Source: a virus. From it: DNA of 64,000 nucleotides. The DNA lies in the IMG/VR virus record IMGVR_UViG_3300013772_000002, positions 32,001 to 96,000 of that record. One strand, given 5' to 3'. Shown piece after piece: positions 22,507-55,607 of the stretch. A model generated the notes under the pieces. The model saw nothing but the letters and a program-made list of their open reading frames with translations. It ran no database searches and was not told the origin of the DNA. Each line of letters begins with the position of its first letter. Position 1 is the stretch's first letter. The translations under genes and the position numbers were made by a program.

Positions 22507-24567
22507 ATGCCTGTCGCTACCTCCGCCGTTGACCCGCTCGACGATTTGTTTGGCGCGATCAAGGGCAAACTCAGCCAGCAAGTACAGCGCGACGAGCGCG
22601 CCCGGCTTCGCCTCGCAAGCGGCGGGGCGATTGGTGCTGGCGGCTCGGCTCTGCGCATGTACGAAGAAGGGACGATCTGGACGGATGGTATTGCGCCACC
22701 AACCTTCGTCGATTTCGTCACGAACGAGATGGAGGGCTTTCTTTATCCTCTGCAGGCCGAAGCAATCATGGCCGCGATTGGCAACGATCCTGCTTTGCTC
22801 TTTCATCCGCGAGTCGACGAGAACGAGTATTACAACGATTGGCCGAATGGTCCACCACTACGCAATATTATATCTACTATTATCTTGTTATGGGGTAAGG
22901 GAAGCGGAAAAGACCTCATCATTTCATATCTAGTATCATATATAGTGTTTGTAATCATGCACATGGCAGACCCCTATGCATACTTTCATCATGCCCCCGG
23001 TGAACCCTTCGACATCATTAACTGCGCCATTAATGCCCACCAAGCGCAGAACGTCTTCTTCCGTAAGCTCAAGAATTGTTTGTTGCGTGAGTGTTTTCAG
23101 AAGTTCGGCAGTAGGCCCGACATCCTCACTGATCGTGCCATCTTCTACCGCGTTGTTCCGGGCATCTCCGAGCCGGTCGAACTGATTCGTTGCTGGTCAC
23201 GCCACTCGAAATCTGAATCGATTGAGGGGATGAATATCATCGCCTTTATCCTCGACGAGGCATCGGGATTCGAGCTCAAGGGGAAGAAGGAACTGGCGGA
23301 AGACGACGAGGGCGAAGAGTACGCCCTCTCTCCCGCCGATGCGATCTTCGATGTTCTCGAAACATCCGCCGCAACGCGCTTCGAGGATCAGTACCTGGGA
23401 TTCGTGATTTCGTATCCACGCTTTGAAGATGACTTTACGATGCGGATGTATAACCGGACACTTCTGGATCATCCAATGAACTACTTCTCGTTGGACGACA
23501 TCGATGATCCGAATGACTCCGTCGGGCTATCGCGGATCGGCAAGTTGAAGTATCCCCACATCTTCGCGCATAAAGCGGCTACCTGGGAAGTCAACCTCAA
23601 GAAACCACGCAGTGCATTCGATAAGTTCTTTCGTGCCAATCCTGAGAAGTCGGCGATGCGCTTCGCTTGCGAACCGCCCCCCGCCAAGGGCGGCTACTTC
23701 TCGCAGCCACAAAAGATTGACGAGGCATTCAGTGAACGCCTTCGCCCCGCTGTCCAGTGGACCGTCGACCATATTCGCCGCGGCTCTCAGGAGTTGGTCG
23801 GCGTCAAGTTGACAGGGCACCGCTTCTCTCCCGCCAACCTCTATGTTGCCCACTGCGATCCCGGTCTGAGTTCTGACGCTTTCACGCTCGGTATCGCGCA
23901 CCCGAACTACGCGGTACAAGCGGAAATCTTCGACTCCAAAGGAAAGGCGTACACGGTTCCGCAGGTGGTGATCGACTCGCTTATCGTCTGGCGTCCCGAG
24001 CCGCGCGAGCATCGTGTCGTTGATTTCATTAATGCCTCGCAGGTGATTCTCGATCTGGCCGGACTTTGTGACATGCGTCGTTGGTCGGCGGATCGTTGGA
24101 ACAGCGCCCAGTTACAACAACAACTGACTGCCGCTGGCATTCGCTGTGAGTACGCCGCCTTCTCGAATGCACAGCAAATCCAGCAGTACGAGAATTTCAA
24201 GACACTCCTCTATGCCGGACTGATCAAGTTCAGTGGTTTCTGGGATGTCGAGCCCTGGCGGCGCGTACGAGACGAACTTCGCAAGTTGATCCTCATCAAT
24301 GGCACGCGCATCGATCACCAAACGGGCGGATCGAAAGACTGTGCGGATGTCGTTGTTGGTGCTACCTGGCTCGCTTGCCAAAAAGGTCTCTCGCAGCGGG
24401 CATTCGAGGGATACGCTCCCCCCGCTCCGGGTCATGCCACTCTCCACCAGCACAACCAGACAACATCGACCCTTGATACCTTGCGCCGCATGCACCGCGC
24501 TCCAAACGCGAAGGAAACGCTGCGGCTCCCCTACGCCAAGTCCCGCATTTCGGCAGGAGTTAGCTAA
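22507..24567 (+). CDS. terL: terminase large subunit
   Basis: WGKGSGKD Walker A, FILDEA Walker B, ISYP motif, HCDPG...D and IDH..GGSKD.AD nuclease motifs. Confidence 0.92.
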   Translation: MPVATSAVDPLDDLFGAIKGKLSQQVQRDERARLRLASGGAIGAGGSALRMYEEGTIWTDGIAPPTFVDFVTNEMEGFLYPLQAEAIMAAIGNDPALLFHPRVDENEYYNDWPNGPPLRNIISTIILLWGKGSGKDLIISYLVSYIVFVIMHMADPYAYFHHAPGEPFDIINCAINAHQAQNVFFRKLKNCLLRECFQKFGSRPDILTDRAIFYRVVPGISEPVELIRCWSRHSKSESIEGMNIIAFILDEASGFELKGKKELAEDDEGEEYALSPADAIFDVLETSAATRFEDQYLGFVISYPRFEDDFTMRMYNRTLLDHPMNYFSLDDIDDPNDSVGLSRIGKLKYPHIFAHKAATWEVNLKKPRSAFDKFFRANPEKSAMRFACEPPPAKGGYFSQPQKIDEAFSERLRPAVQWTVDHIRRGSQELVGVKLTGHRFSPANLYVAHCDPGLSSDAFTLGIAHPNYAVQAEIFDSKGKAYTVPQVVIDSLIVWRPEPREHRVVDFINASQVILDLAGLCDMRRWSADRWNSAQLQQQLTAAGIRCEYAAFSNAQQIQQYENFKTLLYAGLIKFSGFWDVEPWRRVRDELRKLILINGTRIDHQTGGSKDCADVVVGATWLACQKGLSQRAFEGYAPPAPGHATLHQHNQTTSTLDTLRRMHRAPNAKETLRLPYAKSRISAGVS

Positions 24568-26531
24568 TGCCCCGCGACCCGCGCATGCCAAACATCCCGG
24601 CGCCACCTGACTGGGACTACCACCAGGGGAAAATCTATCTTCCCCCGACGATTGCCAAGTCAATTAGGGAAGAGAAGAGTGCCGAAGAGAAGGCGATCAA
24701 GGGGAAGCTCTTCTCCAACTGGTCCCGGACAATTACGCGTACCGCCGGCGGCGCCGTTGACCGTTCGCCGAACCGCCCCTCACACGCCCTCCTGAAGTAC
24801 GTGGCACGTAACTGCACGCTGGATTCAGCGATTATCTCGACACTCAAGGCGAACATTTCCGCCTTTACACAAGTCGCCCACGTCGAGGGGAAGCAGATTG
24901 GCTTCCGCGTCGTGCACAAACGGTACAACGATCCCGCCTGGCAGCCGGACGAGGAGACGTTACACGATATCAATGATCGCTGCCGCCAGATGGAACGCTT
25001 GATCCTCAATACGACCAAGCCCGCCTGCCCTTCGTTCGCCACCTTTATGTCGGCGGCGACCGATGATGAGCTGACAATCGACCGCGCGAACATGGTGATC
25101 GTCCCTGACCGCCAGGGACGTCCCCTTAGTTATCACTATCTTCCCGGCGGGACGCTCTTGCCACGCTTCCTCTATCTCAAAGAGTTCATGGCTCGCTGGG
25201 GTAAAGAGGATTCGCTCTTCTATAATGACGACCGTGCCGCCCAACGTCTTTCCGAGGAGCTGAAACTTAACGGCGTGCGCACTCCCGAGGGGCACGAGAT
25301 CGACCTGACGCATGCCGCTTTCGTACAGGTCCTTGATGACAATACCGTCTGTGGCGCTTGGACTGAGAAGCAATTGGCGATTGACATTATCAACCCGATG
25401 GTGGAGATCGACCAGAGTTACTTTGGCACTTCGCCGGTCGAGCAGTCACTCGACGTGAGCTATCTGTGGAACAGTGCCTGGAACTACCAGAAGCAGCTAT
25501 TCCAAACGACCTGGCCCGAAGCGATCCTCCTGTTGCACGGCGACTACTCCCCCGAAGGGTTGCAGGGGTTCAAGGACGATGTCCTTGCCTCGCACGGTAA
25601 CTCTCAACGTCTGCCAGTGATTTCCGGTGGTCCGAAAGGGGAGACCGACGTCTCGCTCGTTACATTGCGCAATACGCCACAGGACATGCTCTTCGACCAG
25701 CTGTTGAAATTCATGCTCGCGCTGAAGTGCGCCTTTTTTCGCATCCATCCCAGTACGATCAACTTCGCTTCCGAGGGCGCCGCTTCCGATGGCGGTCTGC
25801 CCCAAGACCGAAACTACATCATCCAGCAGGCCAACGAAGAGGGCAACCGTTCGCGCCTGCGTCGTCGCTTCGGCTGGCTGACCCATCACCTGATCATCCC
25901 ATGGTACGACGATCTGATCGCCATTCCCGAAGGAATGGACATGGTTCCCTTCGAGCAGGTCATTCAACGTGAGATCGAGCTCTCCGGCGCGGGCATCAAG
26001 ACGAAGAACGAGACGCGCGCGCAGATCGGTCTTCCGCCCATGCCCGATGGTCTACCTGGCTCCAACCTTGGCGACTGGACTGGATCACAGGTCGATGTCG
26101 CGATCGTCGGCGCCATCCAGGCTCAGGAAGCGATGAAGCAGCAGCAACAGGCGCAGATGAACCCACAGAATGTCGCCGCACAACAGCCGGGCGCTAGCGG
26201 TGGCGACTATGGCGCCGACCAAGGGATGCCCCAGGGCGGTGCGACCACCCCACCTCCACAGGGTCAACCACCCCAACCCGGCGCCCCGCCGACGGGCGGA
26301 CCACCCGCGGCGCCGCCGCCTCCTCCGGCACAAAAGAGTCTCAATCCATTGACGGAAACGGAGGGACATCCCCACCATCGGAAGACACATTACAGTCTTC
26401 TCTGGTCGGGTGGCCCGGTCGTGCCGCGCGGCGGTCTCGGTTCTGCCTACATGGAGGATGACGAGGACGACACTGATGATGGTCCGAATGGTTCGGACGA
26501 TGATGGAGGCGAGGATGGCGACGACGTCTAG
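24567..26531 (+). CDS. portal protein with long low-complexity C-tail
   Basis: Follows TerL; YFGTSPVE, DMLF, FRIHPSTINF, TKNE.R...GLPP portal motifs. Confidence 0.88.
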   Translation: MPRDPRMPNIPAPPDWDYHQGKIYLPPTIAKSIREEKSAEEKAIKGKLFSNWSRTITRTAGGAVDRSPNRPSHALLKYVARNCTLDSAIISTLKANISAFTQVAHVEGKQIGFRVVHKRYNDPAWQPDEETLHDINDRCRQMERLILNTTKPACPSFATFMSAATDDELTIDRANMVIVPDRQGRPLSYHYLPGGTLLPRFLYLKEFMARWGKEDSLFYNDDRAAQRLSEELKLNGVRTPEGHEIDLTHAAFVQVLDDNTVCGAWTEKQLAIDIINPMVEIDQSYFGTSPVEQSLDVSYLWNSAWNYQKQLFQTTWPEAILLLHGDYSPEGLQGFKDDVLASHGNSQRLPVISGGPKGETDVSLVTLRNTPQDMLFDQLLKFMLALKCAFFRIHPSTINFASEGAASDGGLPQDRNYIIQQANEEGNRSRLRRRFGWLTHHLIIPWYDDLIAIPEGMDMVPFEQVIQREIELSGAGIKTKNETRAQIGLPPMPDGLPGSNLGDWTGSQVDVAIVGAIQAQEAMKQQQQAQMNPQNVAAQQPGASGGDYGADQGMPQGGATTPPPQGQPPQPGAPPTGGPPAAPPPPPAQKSLNPLTETEGHPHHRKTHYSLLWSGGPVVPRGGLGSAYMEDDEDDTDDGPNGSDDDGGEDGDDV

Positions 26532-28016: not shown

Positions 28017-29364
28017 TGCACTTGGTCCTGTCCCCACACTTCATCTTGACCACCACGGCTTACCCGTGGCGTTTGGAGACGTGCCAGCGGGGGCATATAG
28101 GATCATCACCCTTCTCGAGGGTCCCCTGACGGGAAAGGACATCCTCATCCGTAAACGCCCCGATAACGCCGTCGATCTCTTTCTCGTCCCCGAGAACAAG
28201 ATTGGCAAATCCCTGCGCCTCGATGGTATCGGTCACGAACCTGATCGGGAACCGCTAGAGAAGACCTTTATCGAGCATCTCGGTTCTCACCTTGCCGCCC
28301 AATCCGCCGCAAAGACCGTCGCTCCGACGCCGCCGCCACAGGCATCGTCAACATGGACGAGTACGAACAAGCCGACACATATAGCGCACGTCTCATTGCC
28401 ATCAGGACAGACAAAATACATCGGTATGCACGGCACTCCCATGCCTGATCTCGAGTCGTATAAGATTGGCAATCCCGCCGATCGTGCCGATGGTTCGATC
28501 GGTATCCGTAATGGGCAGAAGTTGGCGATGACGCCCGTTGAGCGCGCGACCAATCGTGCCTACGGCGTGACGAATCCGACTGCGGACCTCCCCTCCGCCC
28601 GGATCGGCACGAATGCGCAGGAGGCGGTCAGGCGGCGCGTCTCGCATCCTGACTTCCGGATGATCGACGAAACAGGTAAATCGAAGTCGGATCGTTGGGA
28701 CGACATGGAACGCAAGGTATTGGCGGGCGGTCTGGTACCGAGCGACCATCCCTATCTCTCACCGCGCGCCTACATGGGCATTGGCCCTGACGGTCATGTC
28801 ATTCATGTCGCCACCGCCGCGACGGAAAAGATGCGTCCCGAACTGCCGCAGTCTAGGGGCGAGAGCTATGCGTATGGCGAACATAGTCACAAGAGTACGG
28901 GCGACTACCCCGATCGCGGCCATGCCGACGATTTCCTCCATCATGCGATCTACAACCCCGCCTGGGTGACGATGCAGCGACGACATGGCAAGGACATCAT
29001 GTACCGTCACGTCTACCCGCGCGCGGACGGCAAGAACAGCCAGTTGGAACATGACGCGCCGGGCGGCCTCACGTACGTAATGGAGCGCATCCGTCACCCT
29101 AATGACCCAAACGGTAATCACTGGAACCTGCAGACCGTGATTACGAACCAGGGTTATAGTCGTCACCACCCAACCCACGATCAATACGTCGCGGAGTCAC
29201 ATCGTCTCGCTGACGATAATCGTGGCGCGCGCTATATCCGCAGTAGCGAGAATCCGAATGACCCGGGCGTCCAGGCTGCCGTTGCCGCCAGCGCCAAGCG
29301 GTATGAGTACCTCTCAAACAAGAACTCTCCCAAGATTGCCGATCCAGACACGGGAGGGCGCTAA
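28009..29364 (+). CDS. putative head-internal protein (His-rich)
   Basis: IGKS and LEKTFIEH motifs, Pro linker; coupled to giant ORF. Confidence 0.65.
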   Translation: MTDALGPVPTLHLDHHGLPVAFGDVPAGAYRIITLLEGPLTGKDILIRKRPDNAVDLFLVPENKIGKSLRLDGIGHEPDREPLEKTFIEHLGSHLAAQSAAKTVAPTPPPQASSTWTSTNKPTHIAHVSLPSGQTKYIGMHGTPMPDLESYKIGNPADRADGSIGIRNGQKLAMTPVERATNRAYGVTNPTADLPSARIGTNAQEAVRRRVSHPDFRMIDETGKSKSDRWDDMERKVLAGGLVPSDHPYLSPRAYMGIGPDGHVIHVATAATEKMRPELPQSRGESYAYGEHSHKSTGDYPDRGHADDFLHHAIYNPAWVTMQRRHGKDIMYRHVYPRADGKNSQLEHDAPGGLTYVMERIRHPNDPNGNHWNLQTVITNQGYSRHHPTHDQYVAESHRLADDNRGARYIRSSENPNDPGVQAAVAASAKRYEYLSNKNSPKIADPDTGGR

Positions 29365-32300
29365 TGCCCGTCACGCCGTCAACAATCCCACCGAACAATG
29401 TTCCCGTCCGCCTTGCCGCTAACGCGGCGCAGGGAACGGCGCCGACGATGGGGCAAATACACGGTATTAGTAATGACCTGAAATTGGTGCCATCTCCGAA
29501 CGCGGGAAAGACTGACCTCACTCCGGGCGTGCCTGGTGGCATGGTGCCGAAACTCGCCCTCAATCTTCCCCAACGTCCACGCATCACGGCTGATCCGGTC
29601 GAAGATCAGCCATCAGCCAATGCATTTCCGGTTGCCGGTGGTGGATCGCCTCCGCCTCCCGCCGGTTCCGCCGTGCATCGTGCGGTTCCCCGGCTCTTCG
29701 GCGGACTCAATAACGCCAATGACCTGCGTCTCGATTACGCCGCCGCCGTTCGTCATCCCGACGGCGACTGGTTCGCGGACGGCGGCTACGCCCCGCCCCG
29801 CGTCACCGACGACCCGCTCGCGAATCGCGCGTACGGCGCTCAGCGCGCCGCCGCCCACACAAGCGTTGCCCAGGGTGCGCCCGCCGCTTGGGTTGGTCCA
29901 GACGGCGCGGTCGGTCATGGCATCTCGCTCCACGATCGCGAAGGTAACTTGATTGGTCATACAATGCGCCACTATCATGACGACGGCGCCGGTGGTATCG
30001 CGACACGCATGCACCCGATGACCCTCGCTCCAGGGATTAATCCGGCGGTCGCGCACCAGCACGCCCATGCCGAGGATCAATGGCTCAGGGGGCATGGCGT
30101 GACACGCAAGGAGCGGTCGGTCGGCGCCGGGCAAGAAGCACACGACGCGGCGCGCGAGGGCTACGACTTTGCCTCGCCTGCCCAGGGCTACAATGCGACA
30201 CAGCGCTATCACCGCTATCTGATGGAGCGCGGCCATACGCGGGCGATGAACGAGTGGCAAGATCGGTTGGCCGCCGAGGGGCGAGACGCGATGACGCCCA
30301 ACGAAATCGTCACGCACGCTCCCTTCCAGACACAGGTAACACAGCGCGGTGAAAACGGTCATGCCGAGGACTTTCCGACGGTCGGTGCGGGCACTGCCTA
30401 CATGCTCGAACATCAGCAGCCCTATGAGGCGGTGCAAGATTTTGATTCGCCCGGCGATCGGATCGGCGTTGCCCAACGCGCCGTGGAAATGAGCAAGTCC
30501 CTTGCTCCTCCGCCGATGCCGAAGATCGATGTCCATGCGGAGCCGCCGCGTGGCGCTTACCGCATTCCGCCCGTACCGAAACCGGCGCCCGCCCAGCCGA
30601 AAGCGGCGGAACCGTGGCATGGCACCGCTGAACGGGCGGCCGCGACCTGGCGCTCACCGACGCCTGAACCAGAAGGATGGGGCAAACCGAAGCCGCCGCC
30701 CGAGTCGGTCACTGGTCCTGCCGTCCATGGCGCGACTCCCTACGCCAACGTGACGCCAACGCATATTCCCCACGAACCGGATGCCCCGCCGGTCCACCAG
30801 ATGACCCAGGCGGAATTCCTCAAGACTGGCCACCTCCTCTACCCGAGCAGCGAAGATAATGGCTACGGGAACACCGCCCGTATGCGTCTGACGCCGGAGA
30901 TTGGCGGCAACCTCAATCGCTACGCCGAAGAGGTCGGCGGCGCATCAGTACGCGGCAGGCATCGCAAGGCGGGCAACAGCGACCCGACCGGCGGCGGTCG
31001 TCCTCCGGAGCACGCGGCGATCCAGACGGAGCGGCGCGCTGACCTTCGGGCGGCGATGGAGAAGCATGGCGTCCTCTGGCATCACGACGAGCAAGGCAAT
31101 CCACAACGAATCGACAACCTCGACGCCCTGCCCGAGCATATCCACGACAATGGCAACATCTTTGCCTTCCCGCCTGATGCGCCCAAGCAGGACGCGAAGA
31201 CGGTCTGGGGCAGTGGCTTCCGCGCCGACCAGGGTCACTCCCCTTACAGCGACGAACCCGATACCAGCGAGGACATGACCGATAGTTATACCGCCGGTCA
31301 TCACGGTAAAGTCGTCGACCATAACTTCCTCTTCGACGCCGACGATGACTTCGAGGAGAACGAGCACGAAGGGACACCCAAGAAGCCCGCGCCAGACCCC
31401 AAGGTCGTCCTGGCACGTCGGGACATGATCGGCAACAATGGCAAGAAAGTCCATGCGAACCTCGTACGCGCGGCCCTCATGCACGGCGACGAGCATGTCC
31501 CCGACTCCGTGCTCGCCGACTATCCGGGGTTGCGCGAGAAAGTCGACGCGGAGCGGCTTGAGAAGTTCCGTCCGCAGATGGAATACAACGCCACCCTCCG
31601 CCCCCACCTCGACGATTTTGCCGTCAAGGCGCGCAAATTTATCCAGAACAGCGTCGACAAGAAGATGGAAGGGCATCTCGCGGCCGTCAAGCGGGACAAG
31701 CCGAATCACATCCCCGAGTACGGTGATTTCGATACCCATCCCTCTGCCAGTGACCGTCGGCTGGCGGCGTTGGACTATGAGACCGTCGCCCCCTTCGACG
31801 TTCCGGATGCCCATGCGGCGATGGAGTCTTGGCCCAAGGGCGCGCGGGAGCTCCCGAAAGTCGGTCAACTCGCCAAGCACTACGACGCCCATGCCGCGCT
31901 GACGCGCCACCATAGTGGCGCGGACCTCTATCACTACACCGTCTCCCCCGGTCATTTCTCTGACTTCCAGCCGGAGCGCAAGACCGAATACGAACCGGAG
32001 ACCTCCTCGCGCAACGCCACCTACCTCGCCGAGACCCCCTTCGGCGCGGCAACCGGCGGCCGGGGTGGCTCGGAGAACCCCGACCCCTACTGGGGGGACG
32101 TCCCCCCGGCGCACTCTAGTCCCCCACCCACACTGCCGCTCGTCGGTCACCCGGAACGCCGGGACTATTCGCATCCCGGCACACGCGTCTTTGCCGTCAA
32201 GCATCACGGTCTTCGCACCTTGGGCGAGGACATCCCCAAGCATCCGATCGCCAACGAGGCTGAGTGGCATAGCCATCGCGCCCTGATCCGCCGACTGGCA

Positions 32301-35300
32301 GAGAAGCGCGATGCGATCAAGGACCCGAAGGTACGCGAGCGCGCCAAAGAGCTGATCGAGCAGCATCGCTTGGGTCTGGACGGTCATGTCGATGCGACGC
32401 AATTCGCCATGCGCTGGCACGATGCGGAGAACCCCTTGACGCAGGCCGCGGCAAAGGCGCTCGGCTACAATAACCTGATCGTCGCCGATGAAACGGGTCA
32501 CTCCTCTGCCGTCATGGATCAGTCGAAGATCAAGGTTGGGCAGCCCGTCGCCTCGATCTTGCGTGCCTACGAACCCGGCGATCTCGCCAAGACGCTCGTT
32601 CATAGTCTCGCACCCAACGCCAAAAAGAATGATGAAACCTGGCGCGACCTCGTCACCCTCCGTGAGTTGGGCAAGGATGAACTCGACGAGCACATCGCAC
32701 GTCACCAGGGCATTACCAAGTCAGTGCCAGTCGCCCGACCCGGCACTGCCGCCCAGATACCAACGCCAACTTCACCGCCACATATACCGACACTTCCGAC
32801 ACAAACCGCAACGCCGATTCCCAAACACACGTCAACCATCAGTCCGCCCGATGCACCGGGGGAAACGCTAGGTAAGCCCCCGAAAGACGAGAGGTCGATG
32901 GCCCAATATCTGAATTTTAAAGACCTCTATCACGGCACGGGCATGCCTCATTTGGAGCCCTCGATTCTGGATAGTAAAAAAGTTTCAGCAGGCAGTCTCT
33001 TTGGTCCCGGTATCTATCTGACGGATAATCCGACAGTCGCCCAAGGATATGCGCGTGACTCAGAGGGAAAGACCGGATACGAGTATCCCACCGTCTATCA
33101 TGGCAAAACGAACCTGCGCCGCGTCCTCGACCTGGAACAGCCCGCACCCAGACGCGTACGCACGCTCTTTCGCCGTGCCGCTGCAAAAGTGCCAGCGGGA
33201 CATCACGCGTCATACCCCGAAGGGCAGATGGCCGATGCGCTGATCGACCCGGCGACAAAGACCGAAGATTTGTATAGGCATCTTTTGAACGCGCACTCAT
33301 ACGTTCCGCATAGCGATGCCGACCATCCCTATCGCCAAGTCAACGACGAACTGGCGCGGATGGGCTATGACGGTCTGACGCATATGGGGGGAGGACGGCG
33401 GGGCGGTGGTAACATGCACCGCGTCGCGATCGTCCTCGATCCGCAGGGCAGGAATCGAAAGCGAGTGGCGATCTCGGTGAAAAAACTGATCCCCCAGTTC
33501 CAGGGGAATGAAGCGTCCCCATATCCGAACCTGCAATACGGAGCGGACGCGGTGAAACGGAAGCGGGCATATATCGAAGACCTGCACGAAACCGCACGTG
33601 ATTTTCGCCAGAGCCCGGATGTCTGGAGTGTTCCCAGTGGTCAACCACGTTATTTGCGCGAAGCACTTGATGCCGTCAAAACGCGTCACGATCCACACGA
33701 TACGATGCCGGATGGGTATGATCCGCGAAGATTACTGGCCCAGCAGGGCGGGATGTACGATTGGGCGCGCAACACCCTTGCTGGCGGGAAGTTGACCGGC
33801 AACGACGCTCATTTTCCCCACGATCACGACCTTCTCTGGGGACATAGCATCGTTGCCGATAAGGGGAAGGGTGGTCCCGAGCAAGCAGAGAATTACGATG
33901 CCCATCGTGACGAAAGCCAAAATGCGCTTAGGCGCGAAGCGCATCCCTGGCTGGCGCAAAGAATCATGGAGGCGGCCAAGCGCGACAAGTGGTTCACGCC
34001 ACCGGATGAAGAAGCAACGAAGACGCTTTCGGGCGGTCTCGCTGATATGCTGCTGAAGGCGCTGGTGCATACACCGTCATCACCGACGCCGCCGTCAATC
34101 GACCAGGCGCCGCATTCCGCCCGCCTGACCGCGCAATATGCCGCTGACCCGACGCAGATGACGCGTGCCCAGTTCCGCGCGCCGCCCCCCGTGGCTCCCG
34201 AGGGACGGCGGATGCTCTACCATGCGGTTCGCGATCCCGCCGTCATTCCCAACATTATCAACGAAGGACTGGACCCGACCCGGGCGCGCAGCGACATGGA
34301 CGGAGGTAGCAATGTCATCTGGTCGGCGGCGTCGCGCACGGGCTACGGACCGGAAGCGCACAAGGTCGCCTTCCATGTTCCCGAAGACGATCGCTCCGTC
34401 GAGCGTGCTGGCGGACCTGGTGAGGATGCGCACTATCGTGTTACGCGTCCAATCCTCCCACATGAGATCGCACAGGTTGATCGTCCCTACCACACCGCCG
34501 TCTCAGGCGGCAATACCCTCGGTGCCCAACGCGCGAGTCACTACGCCGATGCCTATCACGAGCACATCATCCAGGAAGCACTCGATCGTGGCGACCCGGT
34601 ACCGGAGCATGTGCGCGCGGAGTACCCACACCTCTCTCCACCAGACAAAGAACCGACGACGTGGCGCGATAACGTCAACCTAACCCCTCTCGGTGACGAC
34701 GAACTCAACGAGCATATCGCTCGCCATGCCGAATTGAACAAGTCGATTCCACAAGCGCCACCTGGTACTGCGGCAACGCTGCCGCCTCCGAAGCCGCCCC
34801 CGACGACGACGCCCACTCCGACCACGCCAATGGTGCCGCGCAAGGTCTCGCCTGCGAAAACCGACTGGCGCTCACTGGAAACGCCGCAGTCCGAGGAGCG
34901 AGCGATGGCGCAGCGCCTCAACCGGACCGACTTCTACCACGGCACGGGGATGCCGCACCTCGAACCGACTAACCTCGACAGTGGCAAGACGAAAGCCTCC
35001 GGACTCTACGGACCGGGCGTCTATATGACCGACAACCCCACCGTCGCTCAGGGATACGCAAAGGACTCAAGGGGCAAGGCGGGCTCCGAGTTCCCGGTCG
35101 TCTACCACGGGAAGACAAATTTTCGGCGCGTCCTAGATGCCGATCGAGAAGCGCCGCGTCACGTCCGGGATATCTTTCGCAAGGTAGCGAAGCCGTTCAC
35201 TGACGATGTTGACACTGACGCCGAGAAGTACGAGACCTTCGACGGGCACCTCAACGATCCCACAACGCCGACGACGAAGCTCTATCGCGCCCTGCGACCG

Positions 35301-38300
35301 ATGATCGAAGACGTCGACGACTACTCCGAGGAAGACCATCCGTTCCGCCAGGTCAATCGCGCACTTGCGAGTCACGGTTACGACGCGATTACCCATCTCG
35401 GCGGCGGTATTCGCGGCAACGTGCGTCACCGGGTCGCGATCGCCCTCGATCCGCAGCGCGAGGATCGCCAACGTCCCGTTTCGCCGATCAAGAAGCTCGA
35501 GCCGAAGTTTCAGGAGGGAGACGCATCGCATTACCCGAATCTGAACTACAGCTCGACGTTACATCAGAAATACCTCGACGAGTTGCATGCGACCGCCCGC
35601 GACTTCCGCTACCCTGGCAGCGCGCCGGACGCGGGGGATGCCACCGATGTAACGGACGCCCTCAGTCGTGTCAAGTACAAACATGACCCCGGAAATACCG
35701 CACCAGAGTCGGTCGACGATCGCGGCGTGAGCATGACGACCAAGTTGCGGCGTCGTGCGCGACTCTACCATTGGGCGCGGGAGATAGAAGAGCAAGGACA
35801 CGACGCCGATCTCCCTTTCGACGATGCCCAGGTGCCGAACGAACACGGCATGCTCTCGGGTCACGGCGTCGTTTCCCACGACAATCCCGACGAAGAGCAA
35901 GTACGCGAATACGAGAACAAGCGGCAGGAGGGTGATCACTTCCGCGGACAACCGTCCTACCTTCGCATGGGCGCGCATCCTTGGCTTGCCAATCGGATCA
36001 TGGAGACCGCCAAGCGCGACAAGTGGTTCGAGCCGCCAAAAGTGGAAGCAACGAAATCCTTCGCCGAACTCTTGCTCAAGACGTTCGTTCATACCCCCTT
36101 GACAGCGCCGTCCGGCCTCAGTGGTCGCTCCTTTGCTACCGTCCTCGTCACGTCACTCGACGGTAACCATGAGATACGCAAGGCGAGCGTCCCCCCGCCC
36201 CCCGCGTCCGTGCCGGCATCGACGGTTGTTGCCCACAACACGAACTGGTTCCGACGACCGTCAGGCGAGACGGGGACGACGGCAACCAAGACCGCAGCAA
36301 TCAAGGCACAGGGCGGTCTGACACTCACCGGCAATAATAAGGCGCCGATGACGCAGGAATTCAACCGGCGGCTTGGGCGTGCCCCGGAATCGCTGTTTAC
36401 GACGCGCACCGGGGATAATACGCTCGACACGATGCGCGAGAATGGCATTCGTCCCGAAGCGTCGCTCGCTGAACATGCTGACGCGTTCCGCGATAAACTC
36501 TATCTGGGCATACCCCATGATACCTACGGTCGGTTGAAGGTCGATGATATGTGGAGCCTGCCGAGTACGCGAGGGGCGTCACAAAACCCCGAGGCGATCG
36601 CCTCGGACCGCAGGGTCTACGAACAGAACCGCCGTCCACTTGCCGCGCACGATGCCTTTCATCGCGGAGTCAACCCAAAACACGGCGGAATCCGTGAGTA
36701 CAACGAGATTCCAATCGACCGCACTGCACACCCAAGTGGTCATTTTCCCCTCGATCACCTCGCCTTCGGCCACGACATCGTTGAAGGCGCGCTCGCCGAG
36801 GACCCCCAAACGACCGTCCATGACTACCTTCATAAACATCTCGCGCCCCATCTCGCCGAGCGTTTTGGCTATCAACTCCCCGCCCACGATATCAGTGCTT
36901 TGGCCGGACTCGATGATTCAGATTTCAGTGGCGTCCAGTACGACTATAACGGGCGCTCTCCACTGCCGATCGATCACTGGGACGGCGAAGAATTGCCACA
37001 GGGTATCAAAGACCTGGGTTGGCATACGCCGCAGGTCGAGAAATCGTTCGCCAAATCTAATGCTGCTCAGACAGGCGTGATGATCGGTCTCTGGGTGCCA
37101 AAAGAGGCTGCGGAGAAGTTGGCGATGCCGGACGGTGAAGAATCTGACGAATTACACATCACGCTCGCCTACCTTGGCAAATTAGGAGAGGACGTCGATC
37201 AACAGACAGTCACGCGTATGACAAATGCCGTCCGTCGTTGGGCAGCAAACCAATCTCCCTTTGTCGGCCATGTCGAGGACGGCGGCCGCTTCCCTGCCTC
37301 CGAAGGAAGTGACGGCAAGGACGTCCTCTTTGCCGTGCCGGAGATCGATGGGTTGCGCGAGGCGCGAACCGATCTCTGTCGACAATTGAAGAAAGCGAAA
37401 ATAGAGTGGAAGCAGGATCACGGATTCACGCCACACATAACCCTCGCCTACGTCGACCAGGGCGGGAAATGGCCTGCGGATGGTCCCGCCGAGACGCAAC
37501 TGACATTCACACACGTTACGGTTTGCGCTGGACCTGACCGGACGGCGATCCCCTTCAAGGGTATCGCAAAGGTACATAAAGATGGGGCGATTGGCGAGGG
37601 TTGGGGAACCTATAAGAAAACGGGCGCGGTCAAAGCAGAGAAAATGGATGCCGCTTTCACAGTCGCAACGAAGGAAGGTAAGGCTTCCGGCAAAGCCGGG
37701 GATTATCGTGTTACCGGGATTGATGGCGAACAATGGCCGATCCCTGCCACTGACCTGTCGCGTTTCTATCGCCCAACGAAAGAGGCGGGCGTCTATCGTT
37801 CCGTCGGCACACCTGTGCGAGCAAAGAAGATGACCGAGACATTCACTGTCAAGATTGACAATGGAGAACAATTGCACGGTAAGATAGGCGATTATCTCAT
37901 CGAGGGTAAGGATGGTGCGCGCTGGGTTGTTGACTCCCATATCTTTGCGCGCACGTACGAAGCCGTCACGGGCGTGTCGCTGGCAAAGACGCTGATCCAC
38001 GCCATGTCTGGATCGTCCACCCCCGCCGTTCAAAGGTCACCAACCACACCGATCGCCGCACCCGCACCCGCAATGTCGCCGAAGGCGGAGAACGTTAACT
38101 ATGCATCTCTTCCCAAGGAACACCCTTTCTGGGAGGGGAGCGACGATCATCTCTACCACTCCACTCCCGCAGATAACCTGCCGAGTATTGCGCGCCACGG
38201 TCTGCATACGAACATCCCATTCAATGACTACGAGGACGACGAGAACCCGGACGCACCAGGTGCGTGGCCGGAGGGCGGGAGTGAGCCGCGAACCTACTTC

Positions 38301-40277
38301 GGTGATAGCCCCCGTAATGCGGACGAGTACGGAGGAGGGAATAACGCGATGCTGCGCGTACCATATGATCACGTCAGCGCGCGGGATCACGGGAGCGACT
38401 ATTCCGGAACCTACGCGCGCGAGGATATCCCGGCTAAGCACGTCGAGTATTACGGCGATGGCGCTTGGAAACCGATGGAACACCATCCCTCCCTCGCCGA
38501 AACGGAGAAATCACTCGCCAAGGCGACGACCTTCTCACTAAAGAATCTGCCGCCCGCCAAGCCGATTCATCACTACCGCCATCGCACCGATAGCGGGCAC
38601 GAGCATCTCGGCGTCGTACCGACCGGCACACCTCATGGCGCGGGCGAACGACCCGAGCACGCTTCACCTGCCTGGCGACTGGCGACGACCGGACATGTCG
38701 ATTTCTCTGGTACGAACCATCAGGATCATCCCCGTCACCACCACACGCTGCTGCCGATTTACCAGGGAGAGCAGGGGCGGCACGACCTTCTCACTCACCA
38801 TCGCTTCGCGGCGCATACCCGTCGCGCGCACGAACAGGGCGAGACGAAGGGATACTGGGATGAGTTGCCGGGACCCGAGGATGTGCCGACCTATGGTGAC
38901 CGCGAGCACGCGGAACATGCCCTGGCGCATTACCGTCAAGCACGCGATACCGCCAAGCACGTGCATCATGCCGCCGATGGTGACGCGCGCCATGCCGACG
39001 CTGCCGGAAAATGGCAACACTACGTCAGCGACCTCTCTGCCCTCCACCACAAACTGACGGGCAAGCATCCTGAACTGGACCTTCTCGAAGGCGATGTCAA
39101 GCGGATGCAGCGCGTTCACCAAATGCTGACATCAATGACCCCTGCCGATCTGGCGCGTGACGCGACAGCGGGCGTCCTTCCCCAGCCGGGCACGACTTTT
39201 CACCTGCACGCCGATCGGTCCGCTTTCGACGACGGTGACGTGGAAGCGCTCGACATGGCTGATAGCGCGATGGCCGGACTCGCTGATGAGATTGGGCGCG
39301 CCATCCCAACGGGAATGCCGCTCGATGCTCGCAAGGGAGAGCGCGTCCGTACCGCGCGTCGCGCCTGGTTGCAACTGGCGCGAGATTTGAAGCGCCAGAG
39401 CGCGCTTCGTCACCATGTCGCGGATACCGGACGCGCGCCACACGAGTCACTTTGGCACGATCTCGAAACGCCAGGTTCAGGAACGCCCTTTTACCGCCTT
39501 TCCCAAGGAGCGCTCAATCGCAACGTCGATCGCCTCTTGCCCCAGCGTCGCCAACAGGATGCCGAACGCGCCTTGGGCATGACGTTCGCGCAGTTCGTCG
39601 CGGAGAAAATGCGCGATACCGGAACGCAGGCGCCGCCCGAATTGGCGTCGATGAAACTGATTCAGTACTGCGACAAGATGCGCCCTGTCCATGGTGGCTC
39701 GCTCGATCAGTTGCGACAAATACTCGCCCAGGGCGCTTTCGATATTCTTGGCACACAAGATCGCTCGGGCATCTCACACGCGACGCTCTCCGGCGATGAG
39801 GAAGCGTCCGGATTGGAGAACGCGGTTTTCCTCCAGGACGGTCCGCCCCATGGCGACCCGGAGTATATTGCCGTCTTTCACCCGCGCGTTCTCAGCCTCC
39901 ACGGCGCGGTTGCGATCCCGATCAATCATGTCTCGCTCGATTCCGGAAAGACTCTTCCACTCGATAACTTGCTCGTTTCTTGCGCCGACCGAGCCATTCG
40001 TGGTAAGATTATGATAGCCCTTGGCATTATGCCTGCTATTCTCGCCGGGCGCTGGGACGACCTCACCTCCGGCGCTTGGGCCGATCACGCGGGTTTGTGG
40101 TATGCCTTCCCCTTCGGCATCGCCCTCTCTGACATCACCCACTTGATTCTCGCACCCGGCACGGACGCTGACCGGGTTGCCGATATTACGCGACACGCTC
40201 ATGCCGCCTCCCACACCATTGAAGTAACGACGGGTCGCTACGCGGACGTCGTGACGCTGACCGCGGAGCGCAAGTGA
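29364..40277 (+). CDS. 3637-aa polyvalent protein: multiple ART-like domains, 2H phosphoesterase, PGDYG pair, GNAT-like domain
   Basis: 10.9-kb ORF with GGGAGG RBS; YHGT..GPG.Y.TD....A.GYA...GYD x2, HITL x2, GDY x2, LYH.T...L.SI..HGL. Confidence 0.85.
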   Translation: MPVTPSTIPPNNVPVRLAANAAQGTAPTMGQIHGISNDLKLVPSPNAGKTDLTPGVPGGMVPKLALNLPQRPRITADPVEDQPSANAFPVAGGGSPPPPAGSAVHRAVPRLFGGLNNANDLRLDYAAAVRHPDGDWFADGGYAPPRVTDDPLANRAYGAQRAAAHTSVAQGAPAAWVGPDGAVGHGISLHDREGNLIGHTMRHYHDDGAGGIATRMHPMTLAPGINPAVAHQHAHAEDQWLRGHGVTRKERSVGAGQEAHDAAREGYDFASPAQGYNATQRYHRYLMERGHTRAMNEWQDRLAAEGRDAMTPNEIVTHAPFQTQVTQRGENGHAEDFPTVGAGTAYMLEHQQPYEAVQDFDSPGDRIGVAQRAVEMSKSLAPPPMPKIDVHAEPPRGAYRIPPVPKPAPAQPKAAEPWHGTAERAAATWRSPTPEPEGWGKPKPPPESVTGPAVHGATPYANVTPTHIPHEPDAPPVHQMTQAEFLKTGHLLYPSSEDNGYGNTARMRLTPEIGGNLNRYAEEVGGASVRGRHRKAGNSDPTGGGRPPEHAAIQTERRADLRAAMEKHGVLWHHDEQGNPQRIDNLDALPEHIHDNGNIFAFPPDAPKQDAKTVWGSGFRADQGHSPYSDEPDTSEDMTDSYTAGHHGKVVDHNFLFDADDDFEENEHEGTPKKPAPDPKVVLARRDMIGNNGKKVHANLVRAALMHGDEHVPDSVLADYPGLREKVDAERLEKFRPQMEYNATLRPHLDDFAVKARKFIQNSVDKKMEGHLAAVKRDKPNHIPEYGDFDTHPSASDRRLAALDYETVAPFDVPDAHAAMESWPKGARELPKVGQLAKHYDAHAALTRHHSGADLYHYTVSPGHFSDFQPERKTEYEPETSSRNATYLAETPFGAATGGRGGSENPDPYWGDVPPAHSSPPPTLPLVGHPERRDYSHPGTRVFAVKHHGLRTLGEDIPKHPIANEAEWHSHRALIRRLAEKRDAIKDPKVRERAKELIEQHRLGLDGHVDATQFAMRWHDAENPLTQAAAKALGYNNLIVADETGHSSAVMDQSKIKVGQPVASILRAYEPGDLAKTLVHSLAPNAKKNDETWRDLVTLRELGKDELDEHIARHQGITKSVPVARPGTAAQIPTPTSPPHIPTLPTQTATPIPKHTSTISPPDAPGETLGKPPKDERSMAQYLNFKDLYHGTGMPHLEPSILDSKKVSAGSLFGPGIYLTDNPTVAQGYARDSEGKTGYEYPTVYHGKTNLRRVLDLEQPAPRRVRTLFRRAAAKVPAGHHASYPEGQMADALIDPATKTEDLYRHLLNAHSYVPHSDADHPYRQVNDELARMGYDGLTHMGGGRRGGGNMHRVAIVLDPQGRNRKRVAISVKKLIPQFQGNEASPYPNLQYGADAVKRKRAYIEDLHETARDFRQSPDVWSVPSGQPRYLREALDAVKTRHDPHDTMPDGYDPRRLLAQQGGMYDWARNTLAGGKLTGNDAHFPHDHDLLWGHSIVADKGKGGPEQAENYDAHRDESQNALRREAHPWLAQRIMEAAKRDKWFTPPDEEATKTLSGGLADMLLKALVHTPSSPTPPSIDQAPHSARLTAQYAADPTQMTRAQFRAPPPVAPEGRRMLYHAVRDPAVIPNIINEGLDPTRARSDMDGGSNVIWSAASRTGYGPEAHKVAFHVPEDDRSVERAGGPGEDAHYRVTRPILPHEIAQVDRPYHTAVSGGNTLGAQRASHYADAYHEHIIQEALDRGDPVPEHVRAEYPHLSPPDKEPTTWRDNVNLTPLGDDELNEHIARHAELNKSIPQAPPGTAATLPPPKPPPTTTPTPTTPMVPRKVSPAKTDWRSLETPQSEERAMAQRLNRTDFYHGTGMPHLEPTNLDSGKTKASGLYGPGVYMTDNPTVAQGYAKDSRGKAGSEFPVVYHGKTNFRRVLDADREAPRHVRDIFRKVAKPFTDDVDTDAEKYETFDGHLNDPTTPTTKLYRALRPMIEDVDDYSEEDHPFRQVNRALASHGYDAITHLGGGIRGNVRHRVAIALDPQREDRQRPVSPIKKLEPKFQEGDASHYPNLNYSSTLHQKYLDELHATARDFRYPGSAPDAGDATDVTDALSRVKYKHDPGNTAPESVDDRGVSMTTKLRRRARLYHWAREIEEQGHDADLPFDDAQVPNEHGMLSGHGVVSHDNPDEEQVREYENKRQEGDHFRGQPSYLRMGAHPWLANRIMETAKRDKWFEPPKVEATKSFAELLLKTFVHTPLTAPSGLSGRSFATVLVTSLDGNHEIRKASVPPPPASVPASTVVAHNTNWFRRPSGETGTTATKTAAIKAQGGLTLTGNNKAPMTQEFNRRLGRAPESLFTTRTGDNTLDTMRENGIRPEASLAEHADAFRDKLYLGIPHDTYGRLKVDDMWSLPSTRGASQNPEAIASDRRVYEQNRRPLAAHDAFHRGVNPKHGGIREYNEIPIDRTAHPSGHFPLDHLAFGHDIVEGALAEDPQTTVHDYLHKHLAPHLAERFGYQLPAHDISALAGLDDSDFSGVQYDYNGRSPLPIDHWDGEELPQGIKDLGWHTPQVEKSFAKSNAAQTGVMIGLWVPKEAAEKLAMPDGEESDELHITLAYLGKLGEDVDQQTVTRMTNAVRRWAANQSPFVGHVEDGGRFPASEGSDGKDVLFAVPEIDGLREARTDLCRQLKKAKIEWKQDHGFTPHITLAYVDQGGKWPADGPAETQLTFTHVTVCAGPDRTAIPFKGIAKVHKDGAIGEGWGTYKKTGAVKAEKMDAAFTVATKEGKASGKAGDYRVTGIDGEQWPIPATDLSRFYRPTKEAGVYRSVGTPVRAKKMTETFTVKIDNGEQLHGKIGDYLIEGKDGARWVVDSHIFARTYEAVTGVSLAKTLIHAMSGSSTPAVQRSPTTPIAAPAPAMSPKAENVNYASLPKEHPFWEGSDDHLYHSTPADNLPSIARHGLHTNIPFNDYEDDENPDAPGAWPEGGSEPRTYFGDSPRNADEYGGGNNAMLRVPYDHVSARDHGSDYSGTYAREDIPAKHVEYYGDGAWKPMEHHPSLAETEKSLAKATTFSLKNLPPAKPIHHYRHRTDSGHEHLGVVPTGTPHGAGERPEHASPAWRLATTGHVDFSGTNHQDHPRHHHTLLPIYQGEQGRHDLLTHHRFAAHTRRAHEQGETKGYWDELPGPEDVPTYGDREHAEHALAHYRQARDTAKHVHHAADGDARHADAAGKWQHYVSDLSALHHKLTGKHPELDLLEGDVKRMQRVHQMLTSMTPADLARDATAGVLPQPGTTFHLHADRSAFDDGDVEALDMADSAMAGLADEIGRAIPTGMPLDARKGERVRTARRAWLQLARDLKRQSALRHHVADTGRAPHESLWHDLETPGSGTPFYRLSQGALNRNVDRLLPQRRQQDAERALGMTFAQFVAEKMRDTGTQAPPELASMKLIQYCDKMRPVHGGSLDQLRQILAQGAFDILGTQDRSGISHATLSGDEEASGLENAVFLQDGPPHGDPEYIAVFHPRVLSLHGAVAIPINHVSLDSGKTLPLDNLLVSCADRAIRGKIMIALGIMPAILAGRWDDLTSGAWADHAGLWYAFPFGIALSDITHLILAPGTDADRVADITRHAHAASHTIEVTTGRYADVVTLTAERK
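32634..34076 (+). repeat. intragenic duplication copy 1 (~480 aa)
   Basis: TWRD...EHIARH...KS through AHPWLA.RIME.AKRDKWF...LLK..VHTP; collinear with copy 2. Confidence 0.9.
34656..36098 (+). repeat. intragenic duplication copy 2
   Basis: Same ordered motifs as 32634-34076, e.g. YHGTGMPHLEP and TDNPTVAQGYA identical. Confidence 0.9.
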
Positions 40278-49905: not shown

Positions 49906-49949
49906 GACGGTGGCGATTGAGCCACCGTCACTTATGTTTGGGAGCGATC

Positions 49950-50780: not shown

Positions 50781-50786
50781 GATAGT
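50758..50786 (+). promoter_or_regulatory. promoter for recA
   Basis: TTGACA-17-GATAGT with CATGA. Confidence 0.65.
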
Positions 50787-53423: not shown

Positions 53424-53580
53424 CACCCCGATCGACCGAGGTAGAAAACCGGGCACTATTACACCCACCGCGTAGCGGTCGGTGATTGATGCGGGAACTG
53501 CTCGACCCGCCGGAACGATCCCCCTTCGTACAACCTACGTGCCCATTACGGGGCCAGAAGCACCTCCGGGGTGTTTTTTG
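53424..53580 (+). ncRNA. candidate structured leader RNA ending in a terminator-like hairpin
   Basis: Nested stems CCCCG/CGGGG, GGGCAC/GTGCCC, ACCGC/GCGGT, GCGGG/CCCGC; hairpin plus T-tract at 53558-53579. Confidence 0.4.
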
Positions 53581-53600
53581 GCTTGCGTTCCCGGAGACCC

Positions 53601-54497
53601 ATGCCCGAGACGGTCTACTACAAAGATTTCCGTCCCGACGAACTCGAAGAGAGCTTCTCCTTCGGGATGCCAATCTCGAAGAGCGAGATGTGCGAGCACA
53701 CGGGGTTGCGCTATATCGAGGGGATTGCCTCTACCGAGGATTGGGACCAGCAGGACGAGCAGATGCTCGCTTCCGGCATGGACCTCGATTACCTCATCAA
53801 TAAGGGTACGATCAACTGGAACCACTCGCACGCCGCCGCCGATCTGATCGGCATCCCCGAGAAGGTTCAGATCAAGATTTGGGAAGGCAAGCCCGCCCTC
53901 TGGGTACGCGCCGCCCTCCTCCCCAATGTCGCGAATGCCGATTACGCCTGGACTCTGATGAATGCCTACGACTCGGTCAAATCGATGGGTGGTCCCATCC
54001 GCACCGTCGGTTGGTCAGTCGAGGGAGGCGTCCTCCGCAAGGAGAACGGACGCATCACCAAGAGCGTAATTCGCAACCTCGCCCTCACCCAGGAGCCGGT
54101 CAACGACAAGACCTTCGCCGACTTCGCCAAGTCGCTCAATCACAACGCGATCGCGAAGACCTTCTCCTCCGGCGGTTCGGTCAATCCAACCTTCGCTGGC
54201 GCGGATGACGCGGGTGCGGCTCTCCGGTTGGAGAACCTTTCCGCCGGTCGTCGCGACGAAGAGGACGAGGACGAGGAACGTAAGAACGGTACCTATAACG
54301 CCTCTCTGGTTGGTATCGGCGAACTGCGCCGCTCCCTCGCCGCCAGCGGCTCTCCCCACTACGACGCGCGCACCGGGCGCTTCGTGAACGGATTTGACGG
54401 GATGTTCAAGCATCTCACCCAGATCGATCTAATGCCGTTCGGTGCAGCGGCGGAATTGGTCAGTTGGCTGCGGGCGCAAAGCCTGCCCGCCGCGTAA
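53601..54497 (+). CDS. prohead protease
   Basis: IEGIAST...D.Q.E, INWNH, GWSVEG, ALT..PVN..T motifs; upstream of scaffold and MCP. Confidence 0.9.
   Translation: MPETVYYKDFRPDELEESFSFGMPISKSEMCEHTGLRYIEGIASTEDWDQQDEQMLASGMDLDYLINKGTINWNHSHAAADLIGIPEKVQIKIWEGKPALWVRAALLPNVANADYAWTLMNAYDSVKSMGGPIRTVGWSVEGGVLRKENGRITKSVIRNLALTQEPVNDKTFADFAKSLNHNAIAKTFSSGGSVNPTFAGADDAGAALRLENLSAGRRDEEDEDEERKNGTYNASLVGIGELRRSLAASGSPHYDARTGRFVNGFDGMFKHLTQIDLMPFGAAAELVSWLRAQSLPAA
54153..54239 (+). repeat. copy of MCP N-arm inside protease gene
   Basis: 27/29 aa identical to 55710-55796. Confidence 0.95.
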
Positions 54498-54514
54498 TCG
54501 GAGGCGACACTTCC

Positions 54515-55468: not shown

Positions 55469-55607
55469 TCCCCCCGCCCCTACCGCGGACTCCCCATCCG
55501 CTTCCCCTTCCGGCGGGTGCCCCTCACCCGCCCCCCTCGATCCCCCTTGACGGCGCCTCGCGCCCCTCGATGACCCCACAGGCATGTTTCCCAGGAGGAC
55601 CCCTTCC

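Follow-up and report, generated by a model that had tools for sequence, protein, structure and literature searches.

Polyvalent proteins, the class described by Iyer, Burroughs, Anand, de Souza and Aravind in 2017, have been predicted to enter the capsid, to travel into the host with the DNA and to be freed by proteolysis (PMC5512222). This release has been ascribed to embedded peptidases, either zincin-like metallopeptidases or a C-terminal assemblin-like protease (PMC5512222). Processing of ejected proteins by the prohead protease is established for phage SPN3US (gp175/gp245) and the same has been reported for phiKZ and T4 (PMC10052503). In HK97, the S78 prototype, the cut in the capsid protein falls at K103/S104, in a region that is unstructured (PMC10275583). 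Here we examine an open reading frame (ORF) of 3,637 amino acids (aa) from an uncultured phage, located in a window of 64,000 nucleotides (nt) that comprises bases 32001-96000 of the 104.8-kb IMG/VR viral record IMGVR_UViG_3300013772_000002 (estimated completeness 67%; soil metagenomes, single study). We propose that this giant protein may be a packaged polyvalent chain whose modules are separated by the prohead protease of the phage at lysine sites in the joints between them. A first-pass annotation of this DNA had put forward a similar scheme as an undescribed architecture; a polyvalent class with predicted packaging, injection and proteolytic release was, however, already published (PMC5512222).

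29364..40277, + strand: giant, very probably polyvalent protein P0001, 3,637 aa, open throughout, no internal stop

The placement of this ORF in the first-pass annotation was exact. A GGGAGGG ribosome-binding site lies upstream of its start, the ATG shares one base with the stop of the preceding gene (TAATG), and its own stop is overlapped by the start of the next ORF (GTGA). The giant ORF is translationally coupled to its neighbours and lies in one late operon with the head genes. Contigs from 4 soil samples of the one study show zero differences and zero indels across it, which argues that the ORF is not an assembly artefact. With the giant ORF as query, megablast returned zero matches from 50,697 phage records, and in a tblastn search of cultured phages with aa 641-3637 the 2H domain alone was matched. 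In a word-indexed search, no full-length relative in the range 2,000-6,365 aa was found; since this tool missed known homologues of 2,000-3,100 aa that an exhaustive search recovers, its null result is no evidence for the uniqueness of the giant protein.

Modules and joints of the giant protein

In the chain, Pfam recognises ART-PolyVal PF18760 (E 1.6e-8; 35.8 bits, cut-off 31.2), DUF3990/PARP, LigT and PGDYG. An exhaustive profile search with aa 1050-2249 recovered 543 homologues, largely multi-domain proteins of 1,000-3,100 aa, which match three stretches (aa ~1147-1367, ~1592-1761 and ~1846-2033). On the basis of these domains and multi-domain homologues, we are confident that the giant protein belongs among the polyvalent effector proteins as Iyer et al. 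defined them. It is a chain of about nine modules of effector or unknown function, at least three or four of which have an ADP-ribosyltransferase (ART) fold, while one unit combines a 2H phosphoesterase with PGDYG. In the following list a slash within a motif marks the bond behind the lysine, and pLDDT is the predicted local distance difference test score of AlphaFold.

29364..30497, + strand: module 1, no known family, aa 1-378, 40 kDa; ends MSK/S (K378, nt 30495)
30792..32591, + strand: module 2, no known family, aa ~477-1076; ends LAK/TLVH (K1076, nt 32589), K1076 at pLDDT<50
32592..32720, + strand: 43-aa helical element, aa 1077-1119; ends ITK/S (K1119, nt 32718)
32883..33509, + strand: ART-PolyVal/PARP-like ADP-ribosyltransferase-fold module, copy 1; folded core aa 1174-1382, pLDDT mostly >85
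34113..34652, + strand: middle module, ART-like, Tpt1/KptA-resembling, aa ~1584-1763; high pLDDT
34899..35543, + strand: ART-PolyVal module, copy 2, aa ~1846-2060; Pfam PF18760; tandem duplicate of copy 1
36081..37043, + strand: 34-aa spacer, Pro-rich linker and module aa 2286-2560 (no known family)
37071..37958, + strand: 2H phosphoesterase (aa 2570-2734), then PGDYG (aa 2777-2865)
38073..38510, + strand: module aa 2904-3049 (LYHST... motif); ends TEK/SLAK/A (K3049 nt 38508, K3053 nt 38520)
38523..40274, + strand: C-terminal module, no known family, aa 3054-3637, 64 kDa, 584 aa

Behind module 1 lies a Pro-rich linker (aa 379-476). The helix of the 43-aa element stops at aa 1115 with a disordered linker behind it in the AlphaFold model, and the paralogue of this element ends LNK/S (K1793, nt 34740). 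The unit of ART-PolyVal copy 1 closes with ATK/T (K1553, nt 34020) and LLK/ALVH (K1565, nt 34056), and that of copy 2 with ATK/S (K2231, nt 36054) and LLK/TFVH (K2239, nt 36078); aa 1053-1571 and 1737-2245 form a tandem duplication of 41-57% identity. Further on, the 34-aa spacer ends IRK/A (K2273, nt 36180) ahead of its Pro-rich linker, module aa 2286-2560 ends VEK/SFAK/S (K2560 nt 37041, K2564 nt 37053), and the 2H-PGDYG unit ends LAK/TLIH (K2875, nt 37986). These are the 14 lysine sites of the first-pass annotation, all of which we recovered at the coordinates and in the contexts it gave.

The position of these sites is a stronger argument than their frequency. In the AlphaFold model of aa 1040-1800, which contains two folded units (mean pLDDT 70.9; 27% of residues at pLDDT<50), all five sites (1076, 1119, 1553, 1565 and 1793) fall in inter-domain segments of pLDDT<50, and the lysines that precede Ser or Thr without a hydrophobic P2' residue (1236, 1248, 1299 and 1439) lie inside confident folded domains. 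A second AlphaFold model, covering aa 2240-3060 and built from a 5-row alignment, is confident for the 2H domain only, the first strand of which is preceded by K2560 and K2564 at a distance of 6-10 residues. Sites in disordered joints are 7/7 of those that the structure models could place (7 of the 14 sites listed). Sites of the form K[ST][LIFVM] lie at most 25 aa upstream of a Pro-rich segment in 5 of 12 cases, vs 7% of all lysines. The earlier claim that the motif marks domain boundaries and is followed by a Pro-rich linker is borne out for the boundaries at every placeable site, while the linker follows only about half of the sites.

The joints also resemble one another and the protease. 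Four of them read LAKTLVH, LLKALVH, LLKTFVH and LAKTLIH; the heptad hydrophobic-[AL]-K-[STA]-[LF]-x-H that describes them occurs 5 times in the proteome of 31.8 thousand amino acids (kaa), compared with 0.04 in shuffles, and its fifth match is FAKSLNH at the invariant K187 junction of the protease. The joints differ at synonymous codons, which argues that selection on the protein, rather than a recent exchange of DNA, has preserved the motif. In addition, the tandem sites VEK/SFAK/S, TEK/SLAK/A and ATK/T..LLK/A of the giant protein resemble the tandem sites of protease tails.

The evidence from frequency is real but moderate. The loose motif [ILMVF]xK[STA] is observed 13 times in the giant protein against 6.5 expected, a count that 3/200 shuffles reach, and its density per 1000 aa is 3.6, as compared with 2.5 in DnaE, 2.8 in NrdJ and 13.9 in RecA. 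The first-pass annotation had named replication proteins as the test of its motif; in the form then written the motif does not survive that comparison (RecA is ~4x denser). The sharper K[ST][LIFVM] is observed 12 times against 3.4 expected (0/200 shuffles). For the protease, scaffold and capsid protein together the figures are 11 and 1.85 (6-fold), for 17.4 kaa of non-virion proteins 22 and 17.6, and DnaE, NrdJ and RecA contain 0 each; over 150 polyvalent homologues, the motif stands overall at 1.37 times expectation. When the natural 1.25-fold baseline is allowed for, the corrected Poisson p is 0.0014, or 0.004 without one duplication copy.

The folds of several modules can be compared with known structures. 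The best match of the copy-1 ART module (aa 1181-1390) is to residues 1419-1611 of cyanophage A4 chain 9k3a_B (VIA Z 14.2, rmsd 4.0 Å, 178 residues); the next-best match has Z 7.3, and PARP, tankyrase and diphtheria toxin score Z about 7. This A4 chain belongs to the pre-ejectosome, and cryo-EM shows the protein within the capsid, from which it is proposed to be ejected (PMC12002296). The middle module (aa ~1584-1763) matches Tpt1, CC0527, the Rhs toxin TreTu and PltA at VIA Z 6.2-6.6. In the 2H-PGDYG unit, Pfam finds 2_5_RNA_ligase2 (1.7e-11), LigT (7.7e-9) and PGDYG (1.5e-9), and the fold is confident for aa 2570-2734. Module aa 2904-3049 has a weak Pfam match to DUF7002 and nothing else; its motif resemblance to the middle module suggests that it is probably ART-like. 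About half of the chain, ~1,900 aa in modules 1, 2, 2286-2560 and 3054-3637, is without an assigned fold, no peptidase family exceeds threshold in Pfam or PHROGs, and in a protein atlas the N- and C-terminal parts gave chance-level scores (max 0.80). The C-terminal module contains hydrophobic stretches (GKIMIALGIMPAILAG, GLWYAFPFGIALSDITHLILAPG) at window 39950-40150 (aa ~3530-3600); these stretches in the last ~100 residues could be membrane-inserting segments.

The prohead protease and its inferred specificity

The head proteins on which the comparison of sites is based are the following:

24567..26531, + strand: portal protein; PHROG portal families, 4.5e-13
53571..54497, + strand: prohead protease, SPO1 gp3.2-like (HK97/S78 type by transitivity); phrog_1028, 5.4e-26
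54464..55468, + strand: scaffolding protein candidate, 334 aa, 10 K[STA] sites; between protease and capsid protein, as in SPO1
55584..57116, + strand: major capsid protein; phrog_752, 3.8e-61; LVK/SF (K19), FAK/TF (K44)

The window protease is 34% identical to SPO1 gp3.2, which itself passes Pfam Peptidase_S78 (23.7 bits vs 21), and would thereby belong to the HK97/S78 family; a PDB sequence search with it gave no match. In an alignment of 13 proteases (this phage, SPO1, YungSlug, Revolver and nine metagenomic relatives) H85, S149, K37 and K187-S188 are invariant. H85 and S149 are the likely catalytic pair, and K187-S188 is located at the junction of the catalytic domain and the C-terminal tail. 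The capsid protein was aligned with six relatives of 35-69% identity; its N-terminus is variable except for K19-S20-F21 and K44 (followed by [TA][FLM]), which are invariant. K-[ST]-hydrophobic sites number 9 in the SPO1 scaffold, 7 in that of YungSlug and 4 in that of Revolver, vs about 1 expected (4-9-fold).

The protease tail (aa ~187-230, window 54128-54260) is 71% identical to aa 31-72 of the capsid protein (window 55674-55799), with AIAK/TFSSGGSVN...AALRLENL in the protease and EFAK/TFSSGGSVN...AALRLENL in the capsid protein. A tail that copies the putative cut site and N-arm of the capsid protein is likewise present in the proteases of SPO1, YungSlug and Revolver, and this copy may let the protease co-assemble into the shell and then free itself. 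The N-arm copy (LRLENL) was found only in the protease and the capsid protein and not elsewhere. At the N-terminus of the portal, three close Lys-Ser/Ala sites, IAK/SIREEK/SAEEK/A (aa 31-42, window 24657-24692), and K/S at similar positions in the SPO1 portal (aa 33 and 41) are hints that the portal is N-terminally processed in this family.

Taken together, these comparisons make it a well-supported inference that the protease cuts after Lys before Ser, Thr or Ala, usually with a hydrophobic residue next. The literature searched contained no paper that explicitly reports, from experiment, maturation cleavage after Lys in SPO1-like phages, so that the specificity is derived by comparison. Where the first-pass annotation had taken cleavage after Lys in Herelleviridae/SPO1-type capsids as known, comparative data speak for such cleavage, whereas no statement to that effect was found in that literature. 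Its placement of the motif in the head proteins agrees with ours (capsid protein FAK/TF, K44; scaffold, 10 K[STA]; protease FAK/S, 187, and IAK/T, 196; portal IAK/S, 31).

Gene neighbourhood and related phages

In SPO1 the genes for portal, protease, scaffold and capsid protein are contiguous, whereas here 27 kb separate the portal from the protease. This island contains the giant protein, two large ORFs, a 481-aa protein, RecA, an N6/N4 methylase and a 264-aa virion protein:

40624-44841: large ORF, 1,405 aa, no Pfam or PHROG family
44852-47995: large ORF, 1,047 aa, no Pfam or PHROG family
48428-49873: 481-aa protein, phrog_772, 'tail fiber'
49917-51917: full-length RecA (Pfam 1.9e-118) and N6/N4 DNA methylase, amid structural genes
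52518-53312: 264-aa protein, phrog_1004, virion structural

The 481-aa and 264-aa proteins are kept between portal and protease in many relatives; their genes seem to be the ancestral content of the interval, upstream of which the giant genes were inserted. A sheath gene and a weak terminase match are also present in the window (PHROGs, Pfam). With identities to Herelleviridae of 23-26% for the capsid protein and 32-38% for the protease, the phage appears to be a soil myovirus distantly related to Herelleviridae/SPO1, and we do not treat it as a member of the family. The giant protein itself is probably head-associated.

Loci of relatives were obtained with an alignment as query, a search with the single capsid protein having given none. 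Among the 232 ORFs of 17 related loci, those most enriched in the motif are the C-terminal part of the giant protein, proteases and scaffolds. A portal-to-protease island is also present in the relative IMGVR_UViG_3300021560_000014 (G001), whose capsid protein is 35% identical. Its island encodes a protein of 1,772 aa (L028:4841-10159), which BLAST does not match to the giant protein and which contains InPase PF18823, a polyvalent-protein domain, and DUF7178. In this protein K-[ST]-hydrophobic is observed 10 times against 2.5 expected (0/500 shuffles); among these are double sites such as FEK/SLAVVLAK/A, as well as TLGK/SLLIVLEK/S and MIK/SFLYHAT, the last directly before an ART-like start. 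The giant ORFs of another relative, G003, are not enriched in the motif. The cultured Bacillus phage YungSlug (Herelleviridae) encodes an 869-aa PARP protein, QKE56383.1, directly upstream of its portal, with the tandem site DAK/SFLK/S about 10 residues before the PARP domain.

L006:9345-11954 = MT416612.2 49344-51953: YungSlug PARP gene

Proposed mechanism, alternatives and known systems

Based on the observed domain identities, gene context, motif statistics, location of sites in linkers and K/S conservation in head proteins, we propose the following mechanism. The giant chain would be built into the prohead, where the HK97/S78-type prohead serine protease would cut it after Lys in hydrophobic-x-K/[STA]-hydrophobic within the disordered joints, some of whose motifs would copy the autoprocessing junction of the protease itself, FAK/SLNH. 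About nine products in the range 19-77 kDa would result, accompanied by small peptides; for cleavage at all listed sites, the calculated masses are 40, 77, 48, 25, 49, 32, 34, 19 and 64 kDa, again with small peptides. The pieces would be ejected from the capsid together with the DNA and would target the host ahead of phage transcription. We assign the whole mechanism, that is a packaged polyvalent chain cut at its joints by the prohead protease and injected in pieces, a probability of roughly 0.45. The narrower claim that the prohead protease cuts the giant protein at several of these joints has, in our estimate, a chance approaching even.

Several points weigh against this proposal. That the chain is packaged, cut and ejected, and what its enzymes act on, is predicted from sequence and context. 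The sharper motif was defined after inspection of this phage and SPO1, a per-Lys Fisher test against non-virion proteins gives a 2-fold enrichment with p = 0.04, and the neighbouring giants (1,405 + 1,047 aa) are unenriched (K[ST][LIFVM] 2 observed, 2.5 expected). Two models were trained without the giant protein, namely a position-specific scoring matrix (PSSM) from the conserved capsid-protein and protease sites and a naive-Bayes model from the scaffolds of 15 relatives. The fraction of giant-protein lysines that pass the PSSM, 1.3%, is equal to that of non-virion proteins, and the naive-Bayes scaffold model gives p = 0.17 on the giant protein; both models are weak on held-out true sites, with a leave-one-out median of 4.4 bits for the PSSM and a naive-Bayes model dominated by scaffold composition. 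The second AlphaFold model is uninformative outside the 2H domain, and the window protease reaches no Pfam model. Searches with Pfam and PHROGs and for the N-arm motif found no MuF, portal-binding or capsid-targeting element in the giant protein; its first motif-type site, K378, is not near the N-terminus, where T4-type internal proteins (Alt, IPI-III) have a short targeting sequence that is removed at the first protease site, though the giant protein may have a targeting signal of another kind. ART-PolyVal was not found in five related phage records, in a search where control genomes were likewise silent. Lastly, 1119/1793, 1553/2231 and 1565/2239 are three paralogous site pairs, which owing to the tandem duplication are not independent, although each Lys has nonetheless been kept in both copies.

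These duplicated pairs, and the inability of the independently trained models to detect the sites, would be expected under the main rival explanation, according to which the chain is packaged and injected intact or trimmed at one end, and the Lys motifs, rather than being cleavage sites, belong to linker cassettes that were passed on through duplication and module shuffling. Such delivery has parallels in N4 vRNAP, which is delivered uncut, and in SPN3US, where the cuts only remove N-terminal propeptides; moreover, homologous polyvalent proteins possess a Pro-rich linker before the ART domain without a conserved Lys. Intact delivery nevertheless appears unlikely to us, because the synonymous differences among the joints point to selection on the motif at the protein level, the heptad is otherwise found only at the conserved junction of the protease, and the unrelated G001 protein is equally enriched whereas the 150 homologues are not. 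A different possibility is that the chain never enters capsids but is a multi-enzyme protein of the cytoplasm, produced late in infection, so that its position among head genes would be incidental. This would fit the presence of the non-structural genes RecA and N6/N4 DNA methylase in the island and the lack of a detected capsid-targeting or portal-binding domain. It is harder to reconcile with the structural closeness of the ART module to a capsid-internal ejection protein, with the occurrence of 2H relatives in fusions with head proteins (domains of the MuF, portal and S78_2 protease types) and with the predicted travel of the polyvalent class with DNA. Furthermore, a counter-defence enzyme made late would come too late to help the incoming genome, and we judge this explanation improbable.

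Two further scenarios accept that the chain is cut. In one, the cutting would be done by a protease of the host or by a peptidase module of the chain itself that escaped recognition, for which there is room in the ~1,900 aa without an assigned fold, and embedded peptidases are the commonest domain type in polyvalent proteins (PMC5512222). The lack of any detected peptidase family in the chain, together with a joint motif that is the head-protease signature common to capsid protein, scaffold and protease, renders this very improbable. In the other, the chain would be an internal core or scaffold component that is destroyed by the protease and cleared from the head, in keeping with the scaffolds of this family being the most site-dense proteins. 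However, the placeable sites of the giant protein occur in the joints and not within its folded enzyme domains, K[ST][LIFVM] occurs 3.3 times per 1000 aa vs 12 in the scaffold, and the modules come from enzyme families with their folds intact, which leaves a disposable core with hardly any probability.

If the prohead protease does cut the giant chain at its joints, a phage would resemble RNA viruses in its use of a polyprotein, here as a source of ready-made enzymes for delivery: a single gene, packaged once and processed by a protease that the phage already has, would provide about nine effectors before any phage gene is read. This would explain the release of polyvalent proteins that have no embedded peptidase and would offer a simple sequence rule to spot packaged cargo in metagenomic phages, while the unassigned modules (about 1,900 aa) would become candidate anti-defence or host-takeover enzymes. 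It is possible, and we suggest it more tentatively than the mechanism for this one chain, that throughout a phage clade whose head proteases are of the HK97/S78 type this separately encoded enzyme also serves as a polyprotein processor, reading a 'cleavage code' (hydrophobic-x-K/[STA]-hydrophobic, often in tandem) at every joint of portal-proximal polyvalent giants. In that case one packaged chain would be turned into independent injected enzymes within the capsid, and modules would be freely swappable between joints.

The closest described relatives of the giant protein are the polyvalent proteins, with which it shares many unrelated effector domains per chain (two to fifteen in the class) and a context of phage head genes. 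Signature domains of the class are ART-PolyVal and 2H in the giant protein and InPase in the relative G001, and the phage possesses a portal-terminase packaging system (the terminase match being weak), as is typical of the class where it is not encoded by conjugative elements. In phages the polyvalent class is often anchored through MuF or portal domains (PMC5512222), whereas no MuF, portal or peptidase domain was detected in the giant protein. Unlike the release by embedded peptidases in that class, the joints here carry the signature of a separately encoded prohead protease.

In this respect the locus resembles T4 (gp21, acting on Alt and internal proteins), phiKZ, 201phi2-1 and SPN3US, in which the head protease cuts the capsid protein, the portal, itself and co-ejected proteins at one short motif. 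T4 Alt, an ADP-ribosyltransferase, is processed by the head protease and ejected with the DNA. The proteases of these four phages cut after Glu (L/I-x-E, A-x-E), whereas the motif here follows Lys; in SPN3US N-terminal propeptides are taken off single-function proteins, whereas the putative sites here lie between the modules of a nine-module chain. With HK97 gp4/gp5 the locus has in common the protease family, via SPO1 gp3.2, Lys at P1, Ser at P1', a hydrophobic residue next and an unstructured stretch; HK97 differs in that the delta domain of the capsid protein acts as the scaffold. To our knowledge, no cargo substrates of the HK97 protease are known. Cyanophage A4 is a podovirus with another head type, and its sequence is 17% identical to the ART module; the A4 paper does not annotate the domain as ART and mentions no cleavage of that protein (PMC12002296). 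A cultured parallel is YungSlug QKE56383.1. It too is an ART/PARP enzyme whose gene neighbours that of the portal, in a phage with this type of protease, and the tandem site before its catalytic domain is like VEK/SFAK/S and TEK/SLAK/A here. It differs in its 869 aa with one recognised domain and in its marginal similarity to the giant protein (E 0.007). The polyvalent class is known and its proteolytic release has been proposed; what would be new is a separate HK97/S78-type protease that cuts in trans at Lys sites of every joint of a nine-module chain, some of the joints copying the junction of the protease itself.

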